A DNA stretch of 64,000 nucleotides, from the sequence record MK327933.1; one strand, 5' to 3'. The notes beneath the pieces were generated by a model. The model did no database searches. It saw only the letters and a list, made by a program, of their open reading frames with translations, and had not been told where the DNA came from. The stretch comes from Escherichia phage vB_EcoM_G2285. Position 1 is the stretch's first letter. Every line of letters starts with the position of its first letter. This document shows positions 23,311 through 49,277 of the stretch, one piece after another. A program made the position numbers and the translations under genes.

Positions 23311-23859
23311 TTAACGAGCCCATTTGATGATTTCTGTAATCAAATCATTACGTTCGCTTGCATTAAATCCTATAACTTTGTTAGCACCATCATGATTAAG
23401 TAATTGATACGTTTGGATTTCGTTATGAATTGCAAACTCTTCAAAATATGAAATGACTGTATTAAAACCGAATGAAGACAAAGTAATAAGGTCGTCTTCA
23501 AAACTTTCAGTCATTTCGTTACGTGTTAAAATAATTGTGAACACATCATGGTTTTGGCAAAGACGAACATAATCCTGTTCATAAACGTCAAGAACCGAGT
23601 CCGCATCTTGTCGAATACGTCCATAAACCCAGTTACTAATATATCCACGGTCTAACAGATAAATCTTAGTAGGGTCTAAATAATTCAACATCGTTTCGAA
23701 ACAACCAACTTCATTTCGAGACTTAACATCGAAACGTCCATCAACTGTTCGTTTAGGGAAATCAATCTTTACATATCTTTCACTAATTTCCATTATGTCA
23801 TTAATGAAAGTTGTTTTACCAGCATTATCCGGGCCATCTACTAAAATAATTTTAGCCAT
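23311..23859 (-). CDS. P-loop nucleotide kinase-like protein (dNMP/thymidylate-kinase fold)
   Basis: 182 aa; Walker A VDGPDNAGKTT, downstream LLDRGY (DRY-like) motif. Confidence 0.5.
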   Translation of the reverse strand: MAKIILVDGPDNAGKTTFINDIMEISERYVKIDFPKRTVDGRFDVKSRNEVGCFETMLNYLDPTKIYLLDRGYISNWVYGRIRQDADSVLDVYEQDYVRLCQNHDVFTIILTRNEMTESFEDDLITLSSFGFNTVISYFEEFAIHNEIQTYQLLNHDGANKVIGFNASERNDLITEIIKWAR

Positions 23860-23860
23860 T

Positions 23861-24760
23861 TTATTCCTCGATTACGACATCTTCATATTTAGGTATATTA
23901 TACGGTGAAGAAATTAAAGCATTAAAGTAGATGAACTCACCAAGACCTGGATGGAATACTTCTTCAGGATTTTCGAAATATTGAATCTTCGGACGTCCTT
24001 TAAGAATTTGATAGTACTCAGTTTTAGTTGGTTTAAAAATTCGAATCAGCGCTTCTTCAGGATACTTATTTCTGTCGAAGCTATTATTTGGATCGGTTAT
24101 ATAAAGCGGTTGACCTAATTGAATTGCACATTCAACCACTTGTTCAAAACGATAGCATGGGTCACTAATTCGAAACGGATGAAAAATACCATCTAGATGA
24201 ATAGGAGCCAAATCACCTACAAGACGCTGCATGATGGAAGGACGTATAACTTTCTGCGTTACGATAATCTTATTACCATCGGCACCAGCGTTAACCAGCA
24301 CTTCTTTTTGACGTTCATTCAACACAGTAGTTTGAAGTGAACGATTAACCGACAACATGTCGGTTTTTAAGAATTCGTCAATATAAAAACGTGGTTTATT
24401 AGGGTCTGCCGTGATATTGAAATTGAATTCCACATCAAAAGCGCCGTCATATCCAGTGATATCTGTGATTAGAAAATCACAATCATAATAAGCAATTAAT
24501 GAATCAACCACAAATTCATTTTCAGACCAGAAATATTTACGAGTGTTATACGCGTTATCTTTATACCATAATGGAACAAACTTAAATTCCGGGAAAAGAC
24601 GTTCGCATTCTTTAATATCAGATGCATTACGTGGATATGTAATCACATCACCTGGATTAGCACGGTGCAAATGAAGTTGGAAGTTGCCATCCTTAAGGAT
24701 AGCATACTGTCCAGTTTCATAAGACCGCATACTCAAGATTGGTACGCGGAAAATAGCCAT
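23861..24760 (-). CDS. hypothetical protein in the position of T4 beta-glucosyltransferase
   Basis: 299 aa; tightly coupled to flanking genes; no recognised motif. Confidence 0.5.
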   Translation of the reverse strand: MAIFRVPILSMRSYETGQYAILKDGNFQLHLHRANPGDVITYPRNASDIKECERLFPEFKFVPLWYKDNAYNTRKYFWSENEFVVDSLIAYYDCDFLITDITGYDGAFDVEFNFNITADPNKPRFYIDEFLKTDMLSVNRSLQTTVLNERQKEVLVNAGADGNKIIVTQKVIRPSIMQRLVGDLAPIHLDGIFHPFRISDPCYRFEQVVECAIQLGQPLYITDPNNSFDRNKYPEEALIRIFKPTKTEYYQILKGRPKIQYFENPEEVFHPGLGEFIYFNALISSPYNIPKYEDVVIEE

Positions 24761-25476
24761 TAGTCAAGGAATCCTTTAACATAATCAAAATCACGTTCAA
24801 ACACATGGGCACTTACCATGGTATGAGTATAATCACCAACTTCTACACCACATTCGTTAGCGATATAATGAAGTAATTTTCCTTGGAGATAAAAATCCAA
24901 CTGCATAACAACAGCACAGTTCTGGGAACGCATATGACAGTGGGTATAAAGCTTACCATCACGAATATAATAAGTCACTGAGTCAGTACATGGATATTCA
25001 AGCGTTTCGTCCGAATCAAGCAAAGCCTGATCAGAACTTTCTAGAATTTGGAACACAACTCTTCGAGAGTTAGGCTTCTCTTTAAGTTCTTTTAGAAGAG
25101 CTGGTAATTGGGCCGCAATGCGAGGACCATAGAAAGTGTTGAAGTTTGCCGGCAAAACATCTGATTTTGGTTTAGAAATAAATTTAGCGACATTAGGATA
25201 TGCCTTAAACGCTTCTTCTGCGTTGGTACCACCAGAAATCATAAACTTCCAGAAGTCTTCGGCATATTCATAAGAGATGCGGTTAATACGTGGGTCGGTC
25301 ATTTTGAATGATGATGGAGTGTCAACAACTACTGTCATAGACCCAATTTCATTACAACGTCCAATACGAGAATCAGTTACGAATTCCGGGTTTTCTAAAA
25401 TTTCACGATTGACTGCTTTAAAGGCGGTTTGAAAATCTGCGGCTTTGATATATTTCATTGTGTTATGTTTTCCCAT
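24760..25476 (-). CDS. thymidylate-synthase-family pyrimidine hydroxymethylase (gp42-like, divergent)
   Basis: 238 aa; NSRR, YPCTDS (catalytic Cys), HMRSQN blocks of TS/dCMP-hydroxymethylase fold; N-terminal half unlike recalled T4 gp42. Confidence 0.6.
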   Translation of the reverse strand: MGKHNTMKYIKAADFQTAFKAVNREILENPEFVTDSRIGRCNEIGSMTVVVDTPSSFKMTDPRINRISYEYAEDFWKFMISGGTNAEEAFKAYPNVAKFISKPKSDVLPANFNTFYGPRIAAQLPALLKELKEKPNSRRVVFQILESSDQALLDSDETLEYPCTDSVTYYIRDGKLYTHCHMRSQNCAVVMQLDFYLQGKLLHYIANECGVEVGDYTHTMVSAHVFERDFDYVKGFLD

Positions 25477-25505: not shown

Positions 25506-25530
25506 CAATTCATAAAGCTTATTTGAATTT
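25506..25530 (-). promoter_or_regulatory. middle-promoter-like element (MotA-box-like AAGCTTTA, 11 bp, -10 TATAAT)
   Basis: minus AAGCTTTA-TGAATTGAGTA-TATAAT then GAGGTAAACATGG. Confidence 0.4.
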
Positions 25531-25653
25531 CTTAGCGATGTTGATATAACGTAAAGCTTCAGCATCAATACTTCCAAGAACACTATGAAGAAATGCATCA
25601 GCGTAGTATTACAATTGAACAGGTTCTTTAATCACTTTAGCCGCTTTGGTTTT

Positions 25654-25677
25654 AAAAAGGCCCATCAGGGCCTTTTT
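25654..25677. terminator. bidirectional rho-independent terminator
   Basis: perfect palindrome AAAAAGGCCC-ATCA-GGGCCTTTTT, T-runs on both strands. Confidence 0.7.
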
Positions 25678-25754
25678 AAGAATTTGTTCGTTAGTGTTCA
25701 GTTTCGTAGTCAAAATCTCTTCATTAAGTTGGTGGTTAAAAGTTTTTCTAGAAA

Positions 25755-26915
25755 TCATTCCGGGTACCTCAAAGCGTCATCAGAGTTAGTTATATCAATA
25801 ATAGATATAGAGTTTTCTGCTAACCCGGTTTTAGATAATTGACGTTTATAATATCTTTCACAATATGTACACGTCGTCCCGCAGATTTCATTAGCACAAT
25901 CGAAATCTGGATGTCTGAACCACCTTTTTTCTAAAAAGCCATCTAACAAAGAGGTTTCAATATTTACTGTATGTGAAAACTCTGTCTCATTTTCAAGAGT
26001 GAAAATGGTCTCTAAAGGCTTCCACAGTTCTAACAAATTACCTTCAAACTTTTCAGAAGCATAAGCTTCAAGAACTTTCAAAATGTAGTCTGTGCTACCT
26101 GTACGTCCTGAAACTTTGAATTGAGTGATACCAATATCATTATAAAGTTTCAAATCTTGAGGACGAACAAAACGAGTTCTCAACCAGTTAAATGGATCTG
26201 TATCACGAGCTTTAATACAGTGCTGCATTGGATATCCATTTAAAGATTTGGCATCATCAGCTGTAACATCAGTACTATGGAAAATATAGCAAGAGTCACG
26301 ATAACTACAATGTGTTGTATACCCTTTACCAGCATTAGAACAGAACTCATTTACAAGAACTTCAAATATTATATTGTTCTTATTGCAAAACTCTGCTGCA
26401 CGCTTCAGGAAAGAAACTGAACGGTTCTTATGAATTCCACAGCAGACCTTTTTGATATTATATTGGTCATGCAAGTATTTGATTTGAGTTACAGCATCGA
26501 CATGTAGAATTGTTGAAACTTCAATCTCAATATCTTTATTGACTTCACGAACAATTTCCATAACAACAGGGTTAGCGATAGTAATACGCCATACGCCTAT
26601 TGACCAAAGATACTGAACATAATCCTGAATAGCTTTCTTCTTCCACTCAACTAGTTCTCTTTTTGAACCAGGATTTATCGTGTTGAGTGTATAGTTAAAG
26701 CAAATACCTAATTCGTTACAACGTTTAACGTAATCTTCTAACATCTTTTTGTCAACGTCAGGAAGCCTAAAATCAGGTCTGGCTGCTACAAAAGCCATTT
26801 CTCTTGTAGAGCCGTATACTTCGTTTATCAAGCTATTAGGATAAGTTTTATTGAGCTCTACGATTTTATCAAGAAGAGCTAAATCAAAATTCGTTCCGAT
26901 TTTAAAAGTATTCAT
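25755..26915 (-). CDS. Cys-rich enzyme of unknown function (weak peptidase-U32-like resemblance)
   Basis: 386 aa; C-terminal C-x4-C-x3-C-x2-C cluster plus VCCG, CSNAG, HCSYRDSC. Confidence 0.5.
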   Translation of the reverse strand: MNTFKIGTNFDLALLDKIVELNKTYPNSLINEVYGSTREMAFVAARPDFRLPDVDKKMLEDYVKRCNELGICFNYTLNTINPGSKRELVEWKKKAIQDYVQYLWSIGVWRITIANPVVMEIVREVNKDIEIEVSTILHVDAVTQIKYLHDQYNIKKVCCGIHKNRSVSFLKRAAEFCNKNNIIFEVLVNEFCSNAGKGYTTHCSYRDSCYIFHSTDVTADDAKSLNGYPMQHCIKARDTDPFNWLRTRFVRPQDLKLYNDIGITQFKVSGRTGSTDYILKVLEAYASEKFEGNLLELWKPLETIFTLENETEFSHTVNIETSLLDGFLEKRWFRHPDFDCANEICGTTCTYCERYYKRQLSKTGLAENSISIIDITNSDDALRYPE

Positions 26916-26972
26916 TTTTTTTGCATCTCACGTTAATTGACGCGATGGTTTTTGCAGGTCTTACTTAAATTA

Positions 26973-27374
26973 TTATAGATTCGGTTTATACGATTTAAAT
27001 GTTTCGAATTCGCCTTTATTCATAAGAGCTTTGAATTCGTCAGGACGCATAGCTTTGTCGTCGATAATCCAATCATATACTGGTTTATGTGTTAGCAAAT
27101 TATGGTACTTCAAACCAATGTTTTCCAAGTTCTGAATCAGACTTGGGAGAATGTCAATTGCTATACGACCAGGACCTACTGACTTCATACCGCGAGCAGT
27201 GTAAAGCGTTATGGTATGCCCTGCATCATACAGGGCATTAATGGCAGACACCATTTCGACGTCAGGTTTGAAGTTCACGTAATCACGATTGTTATTCCAC
27301 TCTGTTATACAATCATCGACATCAAAACAAAGATTAAGCATGTTTTCTACACGGTGCATTAGATTCGTTCCCAT
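26973..27374 (-). CDS. HAD-superfamily phosphatase
   Basis: 133 aa; motif I LCFDVDDCIT (DxDx[TV]) near N-terminus; alternative start 27359 overlaps upstream stop. Confidence 0.6.
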   Translation of the reverse strand: MGTNLMHRVENMLNLCFDVDDCITEWNNNRDYVNFKPDVEMVSAINALYDAGHTITLYTARGMKSVGPGRIAIDILPSLIQNLENIGLKYHNLLTHKPVYDWIIDDKAMRPDEFKALMNKGEFETFKSYKPNL

Positions 27375-29044
27375 TGATGAGTGATATCGCCACCGATTGG
27401 ACGATAGGAAACACCAGTTTCTTTATCAGTTAGTACCCATTTACCAGGATTTTTTGTAATCAGAGTAGCCGTTACAGGTTCTGCTACGTCATAACTAATA
27501 GAGCCGTCCTGAAGTACACGGCCCATATTACGTAATTGCTTAGTCAGAAGTTCCATACCTTTATAATATGCGGCTACCGCTTTAAGTGGATTATTCTTAA
27601 AATAACCACCTAATGCAATCCAGATAATTGCCACTGCCAAATGATGATACTCGTTAAATGAACTCATCTTTCCATATTTGTAAACTAATGGATTGATGTT
27701 AATAGTCACATTACAAGTTGTTTCATCAATAGTAAACTGGCCCCAGGTCGGATTAGCGTTGAATTCATCATAACCTGAAACAGCATAAAGCACTTTAGCT
27801 TCATCATACAATTTTGGCCCGTAAATCTTGGTTTCGCCAAAATATCCACGAGGGTCGATAAACTTGACTTCGCCGTTATCAGTAATCATAGTATTACTGA
27901 AGTTCGGGTCACCATGAATAACAGAGTACTGTCCCTGAGAACGGTTATGATAGCGAATAAGATGTTCTAAAGCTTGTTTCAGCATTGGCTTCAGACGTCC
28001 AATCTTAGTGTAGTTCACATGTGTGATTTTACCAAATGAATCAATCAATGGTTGAATGCTTTCACAACGATCAATAACTTTCGTATAGAATTCTTTAGTG
28101 AAATCACGACGAACAGTTTCAGGACTTACAAAATAAGTGTCTGTGCTGAATTTCAGTGCATCTAAAATTGCATCAACAATTTGTGGACGAGCAAGACTTG
28201 ATTTGGATTTAATATATTCAAATGCCGGCTTACCTTTAATGCGTTCCATTTCAAAGTTATTTTCATTAACAGAAACTAACTGAGGAACTGAATCTGATTT
28301 CACTTTAAGATACCATGAAATCTCATCTTTCTGAAGAGCTCGACCTTGTTCGGTTAATGCGAATTTAGTTACAGTTTCTTCACCAATTTCAACTGCATTA
28401 AAACTACGATTAAGTTCACGAACTTCATGGGCCTTTTCAAGTTTAGGCATATCACCAAGGTCGATGATATTCATAAGCTCTGATTTATTGAATGCGCCGC
28501 TGTAAAGGAATTCTACGAAATCACGTCCTTTGCAGTATTCATGAATTTCCTCATCAGTAGAACCCATGTAGAATTCCCAGTCTTTGAACTGATAAATTCC
28601 TACAACATTACCACCTGTTGAACCTACGTTAGTGATATTTTCACCGTCGAAATTATATCGACATTCGTCACCCTTAACATAGATTGCGTTAACATTCCAA
28701 GACCATGAACCAAAATCTGGAATAATATCACACCAGTTAACAATTACGTTATGGCCGTCTAAATCTTTGTGTAATTTAGCAAGAGCATAAGCAGAACCAT
28801 ACGCTTCATCAACTGTACGAATAGTCACATTGAACCCTTCTTGCTCACAATAAGCTCGAACAGTTTCAGCAAATTTTGAATGAACTACTACAATAATTTC
28901 ATCTGCGCCAAGGTCAGAATAAATTGTATACAAATTGCTCAGAATAGTGTCTTGTTTATAGTTAACAAGCACCTTGGGAATATGATGCGTTATTGGATAT
29001 AAACGAGTTGCCAGACCAGCACCAAGAATAACAGCTTTTTTCAT
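27359..29044 (-). CDS. bifunctional sugar-phosphate nucleotidyltransferase / APH-like kinase
   Basis: 561 aa; N-terminal ILGAGLATRL NTP-transferase motif; C-terminal VIHGDPNFSN..IDPRG kinase catalytic-loop-like motif. Confidence 0.6.
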   Translation of the reverse strand: MKKAVILGAGLATRLYPITHHIPKVLVNYKQDTILSNLYTIYSDLGADEIIVVVHSKFAETVRAYCEQEGFNVTIRTVDEAYGSAYALAKLHKDLDGHNVIVNWCDIIPDFGSWSWNVNAIYVKGDECRYNFDGENITNVGSTGGNVVGIYQFKDWEFYMGSTDEEIHEYCKGRDFVEFLYSGAFNKSELMNIIDLGDMPKLEKAHEVRELNRSFNAVEIGEETVTKFALTEQGRALQKDEISWYLKVKSDSVPQLVSVNENNFEMERIKGKPAFEYIKSKSSLARPQIVDAILDALKFSTDTYFVSPETVRRDFTKEFYTKVIDRCESIQPLIDSFGKITHVNYTKIGRLKPMLKQALEHLIRYHNRSQGQYSVIHGDPNFSNTMITDNGEVKFIDPRGYFGETKIYGPKLYDEAKVLYAVSGYDEFNANPTWGQFTIDETTCNVTININPLVYKYGKMSSFNEYHHLAVAIIWIALGGYFKNNPLKAVAAYYKGMELLTKQLRNMGRVLQDGSISYDVAEPVTATLITKNPGKWVLTDKETGVSYRPIGGDITHQWERI

Positions 29045-29085: not shown

Positions 29086-29229
29086 CTAGTTAAAGCATTC
29101 ATACTTTGCTTGTAGTCCAATCATAATCCATCCAATCACAAGTGTTGGAATCATTACCGGAGCCGTTAAGCTCCAGTAGATAGTCATGAAAAGCATCAAT
29201 AGTAAAAGTCCTATTGTTATTGCTTTCAT
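29086..29229 (-). CDS. 47 aa hydrophobic membrane peptide, absent from ORF track
   Basis: hand translation MKAITIGLLLLMLFMTIYWSLTAPVMIPTLVIGWIMIGLQAKYECFN; ATGA overlap with upstream stop. Confidence 0.4.
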   Translation of the reverse strand: MKAITIGLLLLMLFMTIYWSLTAPVMIPTLVIGWIMIGLQAKYECFN

Positions 29230-29861
29230 TGTTCGCCTCGTAACATGGCACCTAGTGCACCGCCTGGATGGAACTTAAGGAAGTCATTAGAGGTAAATCC
29301 ACGTTCAGACGAAAGGTTGATAGCAAACGTATCGATAAGCGCTAACAACAATGTAGTTGACATCGTCGGAGCTAAAGAGTTCTCGTCAACTTCTACCGCG
29401 ATACCGGTACAGAACGTATAATCAAAAAGAGCTTCGTATTCTTGTGGAATGTCTGGGTTACAATGCAACAGAATCTGTTTGACGTTCGGACGAATCATTT
29501 TAAGATGCTTAGCCACGCCTATCATTTCTTCAGTCTTACCAGAACGACTGATGTGAACTAATACATCATTAGGTGCAATAAATCCTGCATCACCGTGAGA
29601 ATAATGCCCAGTGTTCAAGTACATACTCGGGATACCGAGTGAAGCAAATGTCTCAGAAGCTTTAGTTGCGATATTAGCATTCTTACCAACACCTGTAATA
29701 ATTACTCGGCTTTCATAATTACTAAGTCCAGGGCGTCGAAGAGTTTCTAGAATAGCATTATAACGAGCAGGGTTTTGACTAATTACTTCGGCCATAGTGG
29801 CCAAAGAAGAAGCTTGTTTTATGATTGCGTCAATAGCGATAGTAATAGGAGTAGTTTTCAT
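29226..29861 (-). CDS. SIS-domain sugar-phosphate isomerase (arabinose-5-phosphate isomerase-like)
   Basis: 211 aa; ITGVGKNANIATK, HGDAGFI, ISRSGKTEE, APTMSTT, FHPGGALG match KdsD/GutQ SIS-domain blocks. Confidence 0.7.
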   Translation of the reverse strand: MKTTPITIAIDAIIKQASSLATMAEVISQNPARYNAILETLRRPGLSNYESRVIITGVGKNANIATKASETFASLGIPSMYLNTGHYSHGDAGFIAPNDVLVHISRSGKTEEMIGVAKHLKMIRPNVKQILLHCNPDIPQEYEALFDYTFCTGIAVEVDENSLAPTMSTTLLLALIDTFAINLSSERGFTSNDFLKFHPGGALGAMLRGEQ

Positions 29862-30905: not shown

Positions 30906-31137
30906 CATTATGTTCGACTGAGGTCGTTAATCTCAGCCCGGAATTATATCCAGCTGCATGTCGCCATGCAGAGCAGACTATATCATCATCTTTATAGATG
31001 CTATGCGCTTCCACCCACTTGGGCGTACTCCTTTCGGATAGTCGTTGCACGTTCCTCATAGAGGCTTCGCTCAGGATTGTCTACTAGAGATGTCCCCTGA
31101 ATTCACATAGTTTAAAGTGCGCCGAGTTATTTGGTTA
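30906..31137 (-). ncRNA. group I intron (td/nrdD-like, ORF-less, 232 nt) in gene 43
   Basis: interrupts motif B codons (..LYGAL | GNVWF..); core elements CTCTAGTAGACAATCC and GATATAGTCTGCTCTGCATGGCGACATGCAGC; starts TAA after exon U, ends ..CATAATG. Confidence 0.75.
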
Positions 31138-31306
31138 ACGCACCATACAGACTATTAATAAGCAATTTACGGTTAATCTGAGCCGTATTACCTGCTACTT
31201 CAGCCAATTCGCAGTTTTTAAGATGTTGTTCTAAATCAGCTTTGCTTAAGGACTTGAGATAAGAAATTTCATCTTGTGAAAAGTCTTGAGTGTATGTTAA
31301 ATTCAT
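31138..31306 (-). CDS. 43: DNA polymerase gp43, cistron B exon 1 (motif B)
   Basis: ATG overlapping HEG stop (TAATG); encodes MNLTYTQDF..NTAQINRKLLINSLYGA, the polymerase K-x3-NSxYG region. Confidence 0.7.
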
Positions 31307-32127
31307 TATATTTTATTCCTACAGTTATCAAAGTGCCAACGTTTCATACCAGATAATATACCTTCTTTACCACAGTGCGGACACGTTGCTTTAATCTCTT
31401 TAGCTTTAGCCCAGTATTCTTTCTTAGAGTCTGAAAGGGCCTTATTATGGGCTTCCGAATTGGTTTTGCCTAATCTTGTTTTAACTATATTAGGATTCTC
31501 TGAAATTCTTTGCTTCATCCTAGAAGACTGTTTAGAACGTTGTTCTTTCGACCAGCCATCAGATAAAACTTTCTTTTGTTCTTCAGTTTTGGTTGTACCG
31601 AAGAGATGGGATTTATTTTTAGAATAGTATTCTTTGAGACCTATAGATTGTTTTAACGAAGTTTCAGCAGAATGCTTTGTTCCTATTTTATTTTTACTTG
31701 CTACAGCCCAATTGGCTGCTGCTATGGCTTTATACTTTTCAGGATTTTTGGCTATAGTGATTTTAATAGAATCTGAAACCTTTTTAGCAATCTCTTGGGA
31801 CTTCATAGGATTTGGTAGATTTAAAGAATTTACATAATCCCAACCGCCTTTACCACCAGGATTAAGATTATATGTATCATTTCTTTTTACAAAATCTTTA
31901 TCTACAATTTTAGCTTCAAGGGCATAAGCTTCATCTTCATTATCGAATACTTCCAAAATGGTCTTTTGGAGATTTTCTATACCGTATTTTTCAACGGCTG
32001 CTTTAACAACAGGTCCAGAACCGCGGTAAATATCGTTTTGATTAGACTCATCACACTTATGAACACCTACATAAATTTTACCATTAACGACATTAGTAAT
32101 TTGGTAAACAGTATAAACAGTTTTCAT
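31306..32127 (-). CDS. GIY-YIG homing endonuclease inserted within gene 43
   Basis: VYQITNVVNGKIYVGV GIY-YIG motif; C-terminal CPHCG..MKRWHFDNC zinc finger; start set at ATG with SD GGAGG. Confidence 0.75.
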   Translation of the reverse strand: MKTVYTVYQITNVVNGKIYVGVHKCDESNQNDIYRGSGPVVKAAVEKYGIENLQKTILEVFDNEDEAYALEAKIVDKDFVKRNDTYNLNPGGKGGWDYVNSLNLPNPMKSQEIAKKVSDSIKITIAKNPEKYKAIAAANWAVASKNKIGTKHSAETSLKQSIGLKEYYSKNKSHLFGTTKTEEQKKVLSDGWSKEQRSKQSSRMKQRISENPNIVKTRLGKTNSEAHNKALSDSKKEYWAKAKEIKATCPHCGKEGILSGMKRWHFDNCRNKI

Positions 32128-32153
32128 AATATCCTCCATTAGTTGATAAGACT

Positions 32154-32183
32154 ATAATACCACATCCTTGTGGTATTGTAAAC
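32154..32183 (-). promoter_or_regulatory. early-type promoter for the intragenic endonuclease
   Basis: minus GTTTAC-N18-TATTAT then AGTCTTATCAACTAATGGAGGATATTATG. Confidence 0.45.
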
Positions 32184-33703
32184 TATTTTGAAGCCAAAAT
32201 CTCTTTAATTATTTCAGCATTTCGCTGTGCAGCCAACATGTAGCGCTTATGTTCTTTACGCTGCAAGAATACCTTAGTGATTTCTGTTGGAATCACACCA
32301 TCACGGTCTTTATAATACATCATGCCGTTAGGAGAGCAACTGTACACATCTGAAGGACGTTCGGCGATTGCGTTAATATACTCATGCAGTGGAGCTACTT
32401 TAAACGTTCCTGCTATTGTTTCCGGGCTAATATTCACTTGGCGAATAATACTTGGATACAGAGATGTAAGGTCGAAACTCATTACATATTTGTATCGATT
32501 TGGAATAGGTTCCTTAACAAAAGCGCCAGGATAAGGTTGAACCGGGTGAGAACGACCTTGTGGAATCACCTTGTTCTGCTCTTTAAGGCTATTAAAAATA
32601 ATAGCATCCCATGTTTTAATTGGGCTAAACACAGATTGAATCTGTATCTTAGCATAATAACCCATGTCCAAGCTCAAGTTGATGAACTGACGCTTAGCAT
32701 CAATTTGCAATACACGATACACGTCGATAATGTTATAAGAAATATATCGTTGGTGATTGCTTTCACGAAGCTTAGAAATAGGGCCGTCATATTTCAGTTT
32801 ACCAACGTTCAATTCAAATTCTGAAATGTAATCCAGAGAATATGACGGTTGATTGGTAAAAGAGAATTTTTTGTAAAGGTCAATGTAATCAAGAACAGAG
32901 ATACCGAACAATGTAATGATTTCACGAGAACCATACATGTTTTCGATAACTTTAACACGAGTTTTACGATGTGGTGACAACCGTTTTGCTGTGGATTCGC
33001 CAAAAATATTCTTGATTCGGTTATACACATATGGAATATCAAATGACTCAACGTTCCATCCAGTCAAAATGACAGGAGTTTTCTGTTGCCAGAAGTTGAG
33101 ATATTCCATCAACAATTCTTTTTCGTTATCGAACGGCATATAAATGATTTTATCGATAATTTCAGATGGAACTTCATCACCGCCTTGTTCTTGAAGCTTA
33201 GCAGCGATTTCAATAGACCATTCTTCTACATTACCATACGGAGAATTCAATAGATCAAATACATAGAACCTGTCGTCAATTGAGTCATAATGGGTGATAG
33301 CATCAATCGGATGTTTTGCTTGTGACGGCTCAGGGAACCCATCCGGAGATGTTACTTCGATGTCGAAGTTAGCCACACGAATTTTTGTATGGTCGTATTT
33401 GATTTCATAGTTATAAGTGTCAGACAAATACGCCAATTTGAAATCGTCCATGCCAAGTGCTTCAAGTCCGATATCTTCCATGCGTTTAATCCATTGGGAG
33501 GCATCACGCATATTAGCGAACAGCTTACGAGTACACGGCTTACCGTAGATATCGAAATATTTCGTAGCCTGACTTTCTGGACAATGAGCAAACAGTGATG
33601 GTTTATATTCTACTTCACGAGTACGTTCACGGCCATTAGAATCGATGTAACGTTCAAAAATTGAATCACCAATCTGTTCAACCGTTAAGTAAAATTCTTT
33701 CAT
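32183..33703 (-). CDS. 43: DNA polymerase gp43, cistron A (N-terminal and 3'-5' exonuclease domains, motif A)
   Basis: 506 aa; MKEFYLTVEQIGDSIFERYID..FDIEV..YNIIDV..DLTSLYPSII matches recalled RB69 gp43 N-terminal half; ends at in-frame stop. Confidence 0.9.
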   Translation of the reverse strand: MKEFYLTVEQIGDSIFERYIDSNGRERTREVEYKPSLFAHCPESQATKYFDIYGKPCTRKLFANMRDASQWIKRMEDIGLEALGMDDFKLAYLSDTYNYEIKYDHTKIRVANFDIEVTSPDGFPEPSQAKHPIDAITHYDSIDDRFYVFDLLNSPYGNVEEWSIEIAAKLQEQGGDEVPSEIIDKIIYMPFDNEKELLMEYLNFWQQKTPVILTGWNVESFDIPYVYNRIKNIFGESTAKRLSPHRKTRVKVIENMYGSREIITLFGISVLDYIDLYKKFSFTNQPSYSLDYISEFELNVGKLKYDGPISKLRESNHQRYISYNIIDVYRVLQIDAKRQFINLSLDMGYYAKIQIQSVFSPIKTWDAIIFNSLKEQNKVIPQGRSHPVQPYPGAFVKEPIPNRYKYVMSFDLTSLYPSIIRQVNISPETIAGTFKVAPLHEYINAIAERPSDVYSCSPNGMMYYKDRDGVIPTEITKVFLQRKEHKRYMLAAQRNAEIIKEILASK

Positions 33704-45947: not shown

Positions 45948-46418
45948 TTAATCATGTTTCCACACCCCATTGGTATTTAACCAAAGTCGCTGATTATCTG
46001 ATCCTCGCCACAGCTTTTTAGTCGGAAGATTTTTCTCATACTTCCCATCAATAATAACATCAACATATTTAAGCATTTCTAGCTGTTTAATATCTTCAAA
46101 CTTATATCCTGTCCACAACCAAATGCTTTTATTGGGATAAAGATTTTTTACTGTTTGAACAATGCAATGAATAACATCTCGGTTATCAGGATAGAGAGGG
46201 TCACCTCCGGTTATAGTCAATCCTTCTATATAATCATTATTCAAACATTCAATTAATTGTTCTAGTGTTTCACCAGTGAATGGAATACCATTTCTAGCAT
46301 TCCATGTTGATTTATTATAACACCCTTCACATTTATGCAAACAACCTGTAACGAAAAGAACGACCCTGCAACCAGGGCCATTCACAAAATCGCAAGGATA
46401 AAATCTATCATAATTCAT
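45948..46418 (-). CDS. nrdG: anaerobic ribonucleotide reductase activating protein (radical SAM)
   Basis: 156 aa; C-x3-C-x2-C motif TGCLHKCEGCYN. Confidence 0.88.
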   Translation of the reverse strand: MNYDRFYPCDFVNGPGCRVVLFVTGCLHKCEGCYNKSTWNARNGIPFTGETLEQLIECLNNDYIEGLTITGGDPLYPDNRDVIHCIVQTVKNLYPNKSIWLWTGYKFEDIKQLEMLKYVDVIIDGKYEKNLPTKKLWRGSDNQRLWLNTNGVWKHD

Positions 46419-47694
46419 TGGTGTTTAACCCTATGCATTATTTCTTTATTTTTACCGAGATTAAATCCGCGTTCGTTCGGATTTCCCAAATAACCGCATG
46501 TTCTTCTTATGGTGTTCATCTTTTTAGGATCAGTTTCTCCGCAAACTGAACAAACAAATCCGTTTTCAGTAGGAGTCATTTCATGGGTACTTCCGCATGT
46601 AAAACATTTATCTACTGGCATATTAACACCAAAATAATCTAAATGTTGTGCAGCATAATCCCATACGGCCTCAAGACCTTTTAAGTTATTTTTCATATCA
46701 GGAAGTTCAACATAAGAAATGTGGCCACCTGTCGCAATGAAATGATATGGTGCTTCACGAGAAATCTTTTCAAACGGAGTAATATTTTCTTCTACTGAAA
46801 CATGGAAACTATTAGTGTACCAGCCTTTATCAGTGACATCCTTTACACTTCCATATTTTTCTGTATCAAGTTTACAGAAGCGATAACAAAGGTTTTCAGC
46901 AGGAGTCGAATATAAACTAAAAGCAAACCCAGTTCTTTCAGTCCACTGTTTAAGATGAGCATTCATTTTAGTTAAAATTTCCTGTCCAATATCACGACCG
47001 ACAAGAATATTCAATTCATGAATACCAATGTATCCTAGGGACACTGAACTTCTACCGTTTTTAAATAACTCAATTATGTCGTCATCAGGTTTAAGACGAA
47101 CCCCGAATGCACCTTCTTGGTAAAGAATAGGAGCAACAGTCGCTTTAACTCCTTTTAAGGAACTAATTCTACACATCAAAGCTTCAAAACACAAATCCAT
47201 TCGTTCATTGAATAATTCAACAAATTTCTGTTCATTGAACTGTGTTCCAATATAAGAATCTAACGCGATGCGAGGAAGATTCAATGTTACAACACCAAGA
47301 TTATTACGTCCATCAAGAATTTCATTACCAGTCGAATCTTTCCATACGCTCAAGAAACTACGGCAGCCCATTGGAGAAACTGGAACTGAAGAACCGGTAA
47401 TAGCTTTATTATTCTTAACCGAAATAATGTCAGGATACATTCTTTTGCTTGCACATTCTAACGCAAGTTGTTTAATATCATAGTTCGGATCATCTTTATA
47501 AAGATTAACACCTTCTTCAACAAACATAACAAGCTTAGGGAAAATAGGAGTTATCCCATCACGACCAAGACCTTTAATCCGATTTTTCAGAATTGCTTTC
47601 TGAATCATTCGTTCAGTCCAGTCAGTTCCAGTACCAAATGTAATTGTTACAAAAGGCGTTTGTCCATTTGAACTGAAAAGTGTATTTACTTCAT
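46415..47694 (-). CDS. nrdD: anaerobic ribonucleotide reductase NrdD, exon 2
   Basis: glycyl radical motif RRTCGYLG and C-terminal zinc ribbon; 5' boundary at inferred 3' splice site so the join reads ..AYE-YEVNTLF.. Confidence 0.85.
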
Positions 47695-47720
47695 CATTAT
47701 ATTCAGCATGAGTCGCAAAT

Positions 47721-48491
47721 TCATGCTCGTTTATATGAAACAACAAAATTTGGATAGTCCATAGATATGCAACGTTCTTTTATAGTGCTAGGATGAAAAT
47801 TTAGCGCTTTAGCTGCTTCTATATAAGACGTATACTTAATACCGTCAACAACCACATATTCAGGAACTTTATGAATAGTAGTCTTAATACTCAAAACAAG
47901 AGGATGAGTTTCGACTTCACTTTCAGTGCAATTTAAATATTCCGCTGCTTTTTTAAAACTTCTAAAAGTTTTATTTTTAAGCTTTATCGATACTTGTTTT
48001 TTACTTTTTCGACTATTGATATTATTTTGCACATGTTCCTTAGATCTTCCGTTTTTAGCATAATATTCAGCTACAGAAGATTTTATATTGTTTTTATGAG
48101 ATTCGGATAACACTTTACCCTTATGAGCATCTCTTAATTTTTGAATATGTTCTTCAGTATCCGGATGCTTATAAAACTTTTTACCGCCTATGGATTTATT
48201 TAAACATTTTTTGCTATAAAAATATTTACGTATGACCTCTTCTTCATGTTTTAATGCATCTTTATAACTATCAAATGTTTTTAAAATTATCCATTTAGTA
48301 GGTGTATCAGTTTTTAAGCGTTCATTTATATACTTAGATGACGTTGTGTAAGTTTTCCAGTTTGTGGGCTTGTTTTTAATTGTTCTAAATTTTTTATAAC
48401 CGATATAAATGTCGCCATTAGAAAACTTAACTAAGTATGTAAATGCGTCTTTATCTTTTATTTTAGTACAACGTCTTTTTATCCATTTCAT
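47721..48491 (-). CDS. intron-encoded GIY-YIG homing endonuclease (I-TevII-like)
   Basis: 256 aa; YLVKFSNGDIYIGYKK GIY-YIG motif; lies in 3' part of the nrdD intron. Confidence 0.8.
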   Translation of the reverse strand: MKWIKRRCTKIKDKDAFTYLVKFSNGDIYIGYKKFRTIKNKPTNWKTYTTSSKYINERLKTDTPTKWIILKTFDSYKDALKHEEEVIRKYFYSKKCLNKSIGGKKFYKHPDTEEHIQKLRDAHKGKVLSESHKNNIKSSVAEYYAKNGRSKEHVQNNINSRKSKKQVSIKLKNKTFRSFKKAAEYLNCTESEVETHPLVLSIKTTIHKVPEYVVVDGIKYTSYIEAAKALNFHPSTIKERCISMDYPNFVVSYKRA

Positions 48492-48528: not shown

Positions 48529-48739
48529 CAAGATGACTGCTGCATGTCGCCATGCAGATTAGACTATATCTTCATCTTTCGATGCCGGCCGTTTCGAATA
48601 GCATTAGCTTCTATTCTACACCGCTACATTCATCACGGTTAGTCGTTAGGCATTTAGTTCAAAAGAACATTTAGCACGGGATTGTCTACTAGAGAGGTTC
48701 CCCGTTTAGACCGGTTTTACATGAGCCTGAATTAAATTA

Positions 48740-49277
48740 ACTCATACGCCTGGAATGCATCGTATACGTCTTTTTCTGTTTTAGATTGAGCATAATTCAA
48801 CGCATCAGCGATTTGCCATTTTTCTGCATCTTCAATATGTTTAGCATATGTGCGTTTAACATAAGGAGAAAGTACTTTATCTACATTCGCAAATGTAGTT
48901 CCGCCATACTGGTGTGAAGCAACTTGCGCGGTAATTTGTGCCATAATTGCAGTAGCAACACCGATTGATTTAGGAGTTTCAATCTGTGCATTACCTAGCT
49001 TAAATCCGTTTTCAAGCATTCCTTTTAAATCTACTAAACAACAATTAGTAAATGGAAGAGCAGGGGAATAATCAATATCGTGCACGTGAATAATTCCGCT
49101 TTCATGCGCTTTCATAATAAAAGACGGGACTATATTTTTGGCAATGTGTTTAGACACAATACCAGCCATAAGGTCCCGTTGAGTTGGAAAAACACGAGAA
49201 TCTTTATTAGCATTCTCGTTTAAAAGGTCTTTATTAGTTTTATGAATCAATCCTTCAATTTCTTTTTCAATTGTCAT
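48740..49277 (-). CDS. nrdD: anaerobic ribonucleotide reductase NrdD, exon 1
   Basis: MTIEKEIEGLIHKTNKDLL.. matches recalled T4 NrdD N-terminus; exon1+exon2 = 605 codons. Confidence 0.85.

Follow-up and report, generated by a model that had tools for sequence, protein, structure and literature searches.

A compact U32-family protein of arabinosylating phages as a candidate oxygen-independent hydroxylase of cytosine deoxynucleotides

Introduction

The DNA of bacteriophage RB69 contains mono- and di-arabinosylated 5-hydroxycytosine (5hoC), not arabinosyl-hydroxymethylcytosine (Lee et al., NAR 2026, PMC13326640). Liquid chromatography-mass spectrometry of this DNA revealed arabinosylated 5hoC only in place of deoxycytidine (dC), with no dC remaining, and the ThyA homolog gp48 was found to make 5-hydroxy-deoxycytidine monophosphate (5-hydroxy-dCMP), to bind flavin and to incorporate 18O from 18O2 (PMC13326640). 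The same paper attributes the in vitro proof of O2 as the oxygen source to He et al., and summarises from that work that AfhE and AfhF of phage HY126 convert arabinose 5-phosphate (A5P) into UDP-arabinose. Here we analyse another gene of this cluster, the ortholog of RB69 gene 50, in a stretch of 64,000 nucleotides from Escherichia phage vB_EcoM_G2285 (MK327933.1; hereafter the window), an RB69-like T4-type phage (Mosigvirus). Its product belongs to the U32 family, and most database records call it a peptidase; the record of phage Bas47 labels the gene 'UDP-arabinose biosynthesis', and Table 1 of PMC13326640 lists RB69p050 as 'sugar or heterocycle reductase' with structural match 5d88. A Pfam U32 match to RB69ORF050c has been on record since 2006. 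We propose that this protein is probably, although by no means securely, an O2-independent and prephenate-dependent C5 hydroxylase that makes 5-hydroxy-dC precursors.

The closest described system is RlhA (YdcP), the 23S rRNA 5-hydroxycytidine-2501 synthase, which shares with the phage protein its Pfam family and the first two cluster cysteines, is its best E. coli profile match, and has the same proposed chemistry, an Fe-S- and prephenate-dependent hydroxylation of cytosine at C5 (PMC5727448). However, RlhA has 653 aa, carries DUF3656 and a second U32 domain, and acts on 50S precursors, whereas the phage protein has 386 aa and a unique C-terminal CX4CX3CX2C module, its ligands three and four are shifted (x23 to C233; C192 upstream), and its proposed substrate is a deoxynucleotide bound for DNA. 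For both RlhA and TrhP prephenate is genetically required, and both are linked to O2-independent hydroxylation (PMC5727448). The 5-hydroxyuridine (ho5U) of tRNA is made by dual pathways, through TrhP (YegQ; O2-independent) and TrhO (O2-dependent) (PMC6599085), that is, by two non-homologous hydroxylases with one product, one using O2 and the other prephenate, as mirrored here by gp48 and gp50. TrhP differs from the phage protein in its substrate (tRNA U34), its Peptidase_U32_C domain and its marginal similarity by hhalign.

UbiU and UbiV are likewise U32 Fe-S proteins, each binding a 4Fe-4S cluster through four cysteines in a motif kept in most U32 subfamilies (PMC6747719), and serve as an anaerobic backup for flavin monooxygenases, with prephenate as the proven oxygen donor of the hydroxylation that depends on them (PMC10990095); they differ in forming a heterodimer, in their lipid substrate and in having UbiT as a partner. 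The ThyA-like 5-hydroxy-dCMP synthases (RB69 gp48, DLP3 gp80 and the HY126 enzyme) resemble the phage U32 protein in proposed product and gene cluster, but have a thymidylate synthase fold and a flavin mononucleotide cofactor and take the oxygen atom from O2; no hydroxylase candidate other than such an enzyme was found in the arabinosylation clusters of those Acinetobacter phages and Dhakavirus that were inspected. The coexistence of gp48 with a U32 protein parallels that of TrhO with TrhP, of UbiI/H/F with UbiU/V, and of NrdAB with NrdDG.

The discussion in PMC13326640 names the hydroxylation of RNA pyrimidines by RlhA and TrhP/TrhO, without connecting it to gene 50. In the literature apart from He et al. 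2026 and Mahler et al. 2025, we found no paper that joins a phage U32 protein, chorismate mutase or prephenate, and 5hoC; a transposon sequencing (Tn-seq) preprint contains no essentiality data for the U32 gene, which is likewise left undiscussed in the Thanatos and Durham papers.

Results

A compact, divergent U32 clade with two conserved cysteine sets

The U32 gene and the parts of its product that bear on function are located in the window as follows.

25755-26915, minus strand: U32-family putative Fe-S protein, 386 aa, ATG start (PF01136; phrog_5757; ortholog of RB69 gp50, RB69p050)
26058-26636, minus strand: Peptidase_U32 (PF01136) core, residues 94-286
26217-26342, minus strand: candidate cluster site 1, C192-x10-C203-x5-C209-x23-C233
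25860-25898, minus strand: candidate cluster site 2, C340-x4-C345-x3-C349-x2-C352, outside the matched Pfam U32 core

The protein is 99.2% identical to RB69p050 and matches PF01136 over residues 94-286 with 42.2 bits (gathering score 22.4; E = 7e-11), a domain that is present in all listed homologs. An AlphaFold2 model made with 34 homologs (pLDDT 89.3, pTM 0.88) has the shape of an alpha/beta barrel followed by a C-terminal module of ~100 residues. Its top Foldseek match in the PDB is 5d88, the archaeal U32 protein Mk0906 (E = 5e-7, TM-score 0.66 on the target), whereas a phmmer search of the PDB with the sequence returned no chain, even at E <= 1. Mk0906, also the match given in Table 1 of PMC13326640, is the closest solved structure, but it has 247 aa and 11% identity, and does not cover the C-terminal cysteine module of the phage protein.

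Among the four E. coli U32 paralogs, RlhA was the best match by hhalign (E = 1.7e-5, 203 columns), with phage C203-SYRDS-C209-YIFH placed over RlhA C-VAYSGQ-C-YISH. The matches to TrhP (E = 0.0044, N-terminal 131 columns only) and UbiU (E = 0.009) were marginal, and no relationship to UbiV was detected. The 386 aa contain only one PF01136 match, and neither DUF3656 nor a second U32 domain, as in RlhA, nor the Peptidase_U32_C domain of TrhP was matched in Pfam. In NCBIfam the sole match was sub-threshold, to the UbiU equivalog NF047963 (18.5 bits against a cut-off of 440), with none to RlhA. A profile search of 1.84 billion representatives retrieved 1676 relatives at E <= 1e-3 and 468 at E <= 1e-30; because these are so few, we assign the protein, on sequence grounds, to a compact, divergent clade rather than to generic U32 proteins.

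Ten cysteines are invariant among 34 homologs at 46-87% identity. When conservation was counted over 127 representatives of clusters at 50% identity, site 1 retained C192 in 99%, C203 and C233 in 100%, and at position 209 a Cys in 60% or a His in 39%, an alternation that looks typical of a metal ligand; in the alignment with RlhA, C203 and C209 occupy the places of the first two cysteines of its motif CX6CX15CX3C. The four cysteines of site 2 are each kept in 94-95% of the representatives and are invariant in the 34 closer homologs, and this site is a candidate for a second Fe-S cluster or a Zn site. Since two four-ligand sets are conserved, a metal or Fe-S site in the protein is likely. C158 (57%) and C177 (13%) are kept among close relatives only, and G35, R46, N78, S134, N164, R165, P252, Y258, K267, R271 and Y285 are also conserved in at least 94%.

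An initial annotation, made from the letters of the window, had called exactly this single ORF (25755-26915, minus strand, ATG, 386 aa), and the motifs that it quoted are all present: VCCGIH (C158/C159), FCSNAG (C192), HCSYRDSC (C203, C209) and the C-terminal C340-x4-C345-x3-C349-x2-C352. The cysteines that looked conserved to it are so across the family for C192, C203, C233 and C340/345/349/352, but not for C158, and its suggestion of a metal or Fe-S site agrees with the two ligand sets. The resemblance to U32 proteins that it had called weak is in fact membership, by both PF01136 score and fold, and the fold it took to be unknown is the U32 TIM barrel. The profile comparison and structure prediction that it recommended gave the RlhA match and the U32 model described above, and its passing remark that some U32 proteins are O2-independent hydroxylases has become the best-supported reading.

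Genes for prephenate supply adjoin the U32 gene

In Enterobacter phage Entb_45 the stop codon of U32 is overlapped by a gene with the annotation chorismate mutase (CM; Pfam CM_2, E = 2.4e-10), the enzyme whose product is prephenate. The gene directly after U32 codes for an AroQ CM of 79-114 aa in Kanagawa-, Marfa-, Winkler-, Kagamiyama-, Teguna- and Bragavirus and in Shewanella phage Thanatos. A CM homolog separates U32 from the ThyA-like gene in 51 phage records with hosts in Klebsiella, Serratia (including phages LC53 and 92A1), Yersinia, Enterobacter, Edwardsiella, Erwinia, Pectobacterium, E. coli (EcS1), Providencia, Morganella, Kosakonia and Shewanella; in Proteus phages the CM is the C-terminal half of a 128-aa protein. 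A profile of seven phage CM proteins matches the Pyrococcus furiosus chorismate mutase (PDB 1ybz, E = 6e-17), and their invariant R8, R25, K36, E49, S71 and Q75 are spaced as R11, R28, K39, E52, S84 and Q88 of the E. coli enzyme EcCM, which we take to be its active-site residues (structure 1ECM). The U32 and CM genes often overlap by 4 nt. In Thanatos-2 the pair has been relocated after the kinase gene with the 4-nt overlap retained, and since the two moved together, U32-CM acts as a two-gene module.

A CM, a 3-deoxy-D-arabino-heptulosonate 7-phosphate (DAHP) synthase or a fusion of the two (DAHPS-CM) is adjacent to the U32 gene in 20 of 23 T4-like loci and beside it in 17 of 48 non-redundant non-T4-like loci, where CM and DAHP synthase are counted as a union only, the iterated searches with hidden Markov models (HMMs) having merged both families through fusion proteins. 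In the 48 loci, ORFs were called and searched with HMMs and seed proteins over 7-10 kb around U32. Pfam distinguishes standalone CM in L052, L068 and L074, standalone DAHP synthase in L035, and fusions in L046 (8411-9430), L049 (7302-8354), L060 (11079-12194) and L072 (6931-7956).

In these four phage fusions the DAHP synthase is N-terminal and the CM C-terminal, the reverse of the Bacillus/Listeria order according to alignments with PDB 5j6f and 3nvt. The DAHP_synth_1 neighbour in L013 was considered as a 3-deoxy-D-manno-octulosonate 8-phosphate (KDO8P) synthase and rejected, with matches of 1e-49 to DAHP synthase structures against 1e-9 to KDO8P synthases; it is a type-Iβ DAHP synthase.

In the window, the slot that in other genera holds, or precedes, the CM is occupied by a homolog of RB69 ORF049c. 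We rejected ORF049c as a diverged CM, as it has no CM_2 match, aligns with the CM profile at E = 0.52 only by hhalign, and coexists with a true CM in Tegunavirus, in PM2 and in IMG/VR locus L036. The Mosigvirus lineage has apparently lost its chorismate mutase.

U32 genes accompany arabinosylation genes with and without a ThyA-like hydroxylase

Outside the T4-like phages, U32 homologs with 39-58% identity are carried by viral contigs of 8-466 kb and by metagenome-assembled genomes (MAGs). Close to them, a homolog of the proposed first arabinosyltransferase of RB69 (GT1), which often overlaps the U32 gene, was found in 31/48 non-T4-like loci by iterated searches, a count that may be inflated by merging with the Tmk-like family, and in 26/38 by blastp clustering of the first 38 loci. 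The corresponding counts are 20/48 and 17/38 for AfhE-like proteins, and 12/48 and 10/38 for the A5P isomerase. TAGT directly adjoins U32 in two loci, a dCMP deaminase or DCD/dUTPase lies near it in several, and other neighbours are deoxynucleoside kinase (dNK), NT5C and Tmk-like kinases. Loci such as L014, L015, L016 and L002 have U32 without AfhE or isomerase. A ThyA-like 5-hydroxy-dCMP synthase was found in 0/48 loci within the 7-10 kb searched, L037 having a canonical ThyA only. The locus of a Gastranaerophilaceae MAG bin (L072) has the order AfhE, 200-aa protein, isomerase, DAHPS-CM, U32 and glycosyltransferase; by its gene content this arabinosylation module is complete, and U32 is its sole hydroxylase candidate.

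A motif-based scan of IMG/VR for the ThyA-like gene gave 46 contigs, which were intersected by contig name with 47 U32 contigs. Both genes were found on 15 contigs, all T4-like, the ThyA-like gene only on 31, including VR5-type phages and the Acinetobacter phages Kimel, Ac42 and Acj9, and U32 only on 32, together with arabinosylation or glycosyltransferase genes.

Among phage records, U32 was found in 221, all with Enterobacterales or Shewanella hosts and none below 80% identity, and AfhE in 371, of which 57 are of Acinetobacter phages; U32 is absent from 57/57 of the latter. The cluster of Acinetobacter phage Kimel is otherwise collinear, but its phosphatase and ThyA-like genes are direct neighbours: precisely U32 and the small gene downstream of it (CM or ORF049c) are lacking. 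Nevertheless, DLP3 and other Acinetobacter phages make mono- to tri-arabinosyl-5hoC (PMC13326640). Matches in genomes and MAGs came from Romboutsia (two), Oscillospiraceae, Erysipelotrichales, Gastranaerophilaceae, Tannerella and Phocaeicola faecalis, all of them in obligately anaerobic lineages, and from further bins of Bacillota, Planctomycetota, BRC1 and Woesearchaeota; on one more contig a dockerin-bearing glycosidase adjoins the island.

Two observations concern additional genes in these loci. In the megaphage-like contigs L002 (9175-9939) and L016 (8080-8826), with dCMP deaminase upstream, U32 is directly followed by a conserved protein of ~250 aa with no Pfam match and no informative PDB match, which may be a partner of the hydroxylase. 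In L003 (12160-14360; also in L069; Bacillota MAG contig), a second, more distant U32-like protein of 377 aa adjoins a radical SAM/SPASM protein a few genes from the U32 homolog, among NT5C, dNK, a nicotinamide mononucleotide transporter and a nucleoside deoxyribosyltransferase; this pair may be a different nucleoside-modification system.

Discussion

A proposed O2-independent route to 5-hydroxycytosine in DNA

From the family membership, the conserved ligand sets and the patterns of gene neighbourhood and distribution, which are direct observations, we infer a hydroxylase activity with prephenate as oxygen donor, cytosine as target and an anaerobic role. The U32 enzyme would be the O2-independent counterpart of the O2/flavin-dependent gp48: with one or two Fe-S clusters carrying electron transfer, it would oxidise C5 of a cytosine deoxynucleotide, most likely dCMP, and the hydroxyl would come from prephenate, leaving phenylpyruvate and CO2. 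The resulting 5-hydroxy-dCMP would be phosphorylated, built into DNA for dC and then arabinosylated, so that arabinosyl-5-hydroxycytosine DNA could be kept up in a facultatively anaerobic host growing without oxygen. Relatives would secure the co-substrate through the CM and/or DAHP synthase beside U32, and the Mosigvirus lineage of the window would depend on host PheA/TyrA for prephenate. In phages of anaerobes U32 may be the sole hydroxylase, and in T4-like phages it would work alongside a gp48-type enzyme.

We lean slightly towards a mononucleotide rather than DNA as the substrate, because dC is fully replaced in RB69 and because Tmk-like kinases, dCMP deaminase, dNK and NT5C are usual neighbours. 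A broader claim, that the protein is the founding member, from a model phage, of a virus-borne clade (~470 clusters at 50% identity, E <= 1e-30) that hydroxylates deoxypyrimidine nucleotides without O2 by means of prephenate and is the main hydroxylase for glycosylated 5hoC DNA in phages of anaerobes, is tentative, and we would give it a little less than an even chance.

Several points weigh against the proposed hydroxylase. As of the 2024 PNAS paper, whose authors were still awaiting activity assays, direct hydroxylation in vitro had not been demonstrated for any U32 protein (PMC10990095), and the literature searched as above contains no biochemical or genetic test of the phage protein. The site 1 spacing, C-x10-C-x5-C-x23-C, departs from the CX6CX15CX3/4C common in U32 proteins. 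The Mosigvirus lineage of the window has no CM, its U32 neighbour being ORF049c, which is truncated here. No U32 match was found in ~40 E. coli phage records (VR5-type Dhakavirus and relatives, with an AfhE ~43% identical), and VR5, the one inspected, has the ThyA-like route and neither U32 nor CM, so that phages of facultative anaerobes can do without U32, which is an accessory gene. Finally, oxygen lifestyle was deduced from host or bin taxonomy, and the absence of ThyA-like genes refers to 7-10 kb windows and a motif scan, which very divergent hydroxylases could escape.

If the proposal is correct, it would close a gap in the pathway, as the sole known 5-hydroxy-dCMP synthase needs O2, whereas the hosts of these phages are bacteria of gut and sediment, and the phages themselves have genes for an anaerobic ribonucleotide reductase. 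The range of prephenate-dependent hydroxylation by U32 proteins, so far RNA and quinones, would come to include DNA precursors and viruses, and the shikimate-pathway genes (CM, DAHP synthase) in phages would be explained: a full exchange of C for 5hoC would require ~6x10^4 prephenate per genome (37% GC x 168 kb), and millions per burst. The natural substrates of UbiU/V are non-commercial and highly hydrophobic (PMC6747719), whereas dCMP and prephenate are small, soluble and commercial, so this could become the first U32 hydroxylase to be readily reconstituted in vitro. The proposal would further make it possible to predict which therapeutic phages keep their protective DNA modification at anoxic infection sites, and would correct a widespread 'peptidase' annotation.

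Alternative functions of the U32 protein

No rival explains the three-way pattern of prephenate-supply partners, glycosyltransferase partners and a distribution complementary to that of the ThyA-like hydroxylase. Other prephenate or chorismate chemistry, or action on DNA itself, survives best, and could mean a minor additional base modification, uracil or dUMP as the target of hydroxylation, or cytosine hydroxylated in DNA after replication. The link to prephenate is strong and the acceptor is only deduced, several homologs adjoin dCMP deaminase, a dUMP producer, and the known nucleic-acid substrates of U32 proteins are polymers. However, the presence in RB69 of arabinosylated 5hoC only, with no dC, implies pre-replicative synthesis (PMC13326640), and the Tmk-like kinases and dCTPase-type logic of the clusters fit a deoxynucleoside monophosphate substrate. 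We therefore consider this group of functions unlikely, though worth keeping in view.

An RNA hydroxylase that tunes translation during infection, through ho5U34 in tRNA or 5-hydroxycytidine (ho5C) 2501 in 23S rRNA, would be in line with the fact that all characterised nucleic-acid U32 enzymes act on RNA (PMC5727448, PMC6599085) and that RlhA is the best E. coli match; a neighbouring CM would suit this role equally. Yet E. coli has its own RlhA and TrhP, the phage protein has neither the additional domains of RlhA nor the Peptidase_U32_C domain of TrhP, and the gene is set in DNA-base glycosylation and deoxynucleotide modules in T4-like phages and in 48 unrelated loci, next to GT1 homologs, AfhE, TAGT, dCMP deaminase, dNK, NT5C and Tmk-like kinases, all of which makes such a role quite improbable.

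We assign a similarly small probability to a redox enzyme of the sugar branch, as the labels in Table 1 of PMC13326640 and in the Bas47 record would have it. The gene does lie between sugar-activation and hydroxylase/transferase genes, and Fe-S TIM-barrel proteins can be reductases. Nevertheless, AfhE and AfhF alone reportedly suffice to make UDP-arabinofuranose from A5P (He et al., as summarised in PMC13326640), the Acinetobacter phages make up to tri-arabinosylated 5hoC without any U32 gene, and U32 occurs without AfhE or isomerase in such loci as those named above. The partnership with CM and DAHP synthase, which is constant in the U32 clade and points to prephenate rather than sugar chemistry, would be left unexplained. 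The same evidence speaks against the roles offered by the initial annotation, a sugar epimerase, oxidoreductase or unusual transferase.

It is very improbable that the protein is instead an accessory or electron-transfer partner of gp48, such as a flavin reductase or maturase. The two genes neighbour each other in T4-like phages, gp48 needs reduced flavin, and two putative Fe-S clusters could serve such a role; against this, gp48 and a kinase are sufficient for 5hodC in E. coli without gp50 (PMC13326640), 32 IMG/VR contigs and 48 loci have U32 with no ThyA-like gene detected, and 31 contigs have the ThyA-like gene with no U32. A genuine collagenase-like peptidase, to which only the historical family name points, has a negligible probability given that the members characterised in E. 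coli are Fe-S proteins tied to hydroxylation, and that the phage protein has conserved metal-ligand sets and is cytoplasmic, in a nucleotide-metabolism context.

The arabinosylation locus and other features of the window

The U32 gene stands in the block between gene 43 and uvsX, which in RB69 takes the place of the T4 hydroxymethylase and glucosyltransferase genes; the flanks in the window encode gp41, gp40, UvsX, gp43, RegA, gp62, gp44 and gp45, and over 7 kb the sequence shares 98% identity with that of many Escherichia and Shigella phages. The gene order p045-p055 of the RB69 cluster is kept, with orthologous genes, which agrees with the earlier placement of the U32 gene inside a DNA-modification island. 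Its neighbours are listed below.

23311-23859, minus strand: thymidylate-kinase-like nucleotide kinase (RB69 gp45 ortholog)
23861-24760, minus strand: proposed first DNA arabinosyltransferase (RB69 gp46:47 ortholog; phrog_3891)
24760-25476, minus strand: ThyA-like 5-hydroxy-dCMP synthase (RB69 gp48 ortholog; Pfam Thymidylat_synt), O2/flavin-dependent route
25519-25758, minus strand: RB69 ORF049c homolog, 79 aa in relatives, with an ATGA overlap with the U32 stop codon
25650-25681, no strand assigned: bidirectional terminator-like hairpin AAAAAGGCCC-ATCA-GGGCCTTTTT, inside ORF049c, 74 nt beyond the U32 stop
26973-27374, minus strand: HAD phosphatase (AfhF-like, RB69 gp51), arabinofuranose 1,5-bisphosphate to arabinofuranose 1-phosphate
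27359-29044, minus strand: bifunctional nucleotidyltransferase and kinase (AfhE-like, RB69 gp52:53)
29226-29861, minus strand: A5P isomerase (SIS domain, RB69 gp55)

The bidirectional terminator at which the initial annotation let the U32 gene end exists as a hairpin, but the gene does not end there, as the hairpin lies past the stop codon and within ORF049c. Nor is U32 the last gene of a sugar sub-operon, since ORF049c, the ThyA-like hydroxylase, the glycosyltransferase and the kinase continue on the same strand. Terminator-like hairpins in the region number 4 against 3.7 expected by chance, so that this one is not significant alone, and the scan for promoters and terminators gave counts not above shuffled expectation.

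ORF049c is truncated in the window by a change of codon 50 from GAA to TAA relative to phage Bas47 (stop at ~25609-25611), which leaves 49 aa (25609-25758). Over its 240 nt there are 10 further differences from Bas47, 8 synonymous and 2 non-synonymous, some of them past the stop. This mostly synonymous pattern, which extends past the stop, suggests normal constraint on the gene, with the truncation either a recent event or a sequencing error. At the other end of the U32 gene, an A8 homopolymer directly precedes the ATG (26915-26935, minus strand), and in the annotations of RB69 and Bas47 the gene has 9 nt more (1170 nt). The longer annotation would imply another length of the A-run, putting an upstream ATG in frame; this may be a slippage-prone region, or an annotation difference only.

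The window also encodes an anaerobic ribonucleotide reductase, with nrdG at 45948-46418 (minus strand) and an nrdD split into 48732-49277 and 46415-47746 (minus strand), the glycyl-radical motif RRTCGYLG lying in the second part and a 256-aa endonuclease-like ORF (47721-48491) between the two. The phage thus has the means to make dNTPs anaerobically, and both genes are consistent with replication under anoxia.

The DNA polymerase gene 43 is interrupted twice. A GIY-YIG-type homing endonuclease ORF of 277 aa (31306-32139, minus strand, within 31140-32200) separates the N-terminal polymerase ORF, whose last residues are ...AEIIKEILASK*, from a short middle coding piece in a different frame; Rfam gave no second intron at E <= 0.01, and this interruption could be a split gene or an undetected intron. 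The other is a group I intron (Rfam RF00028, 83.6 bits, E = 2e-21) at 30954-31170 (minus strand), positioned between the motif-B codons (...KLLINSLYGAL) and ...GNVWFRYYDL.

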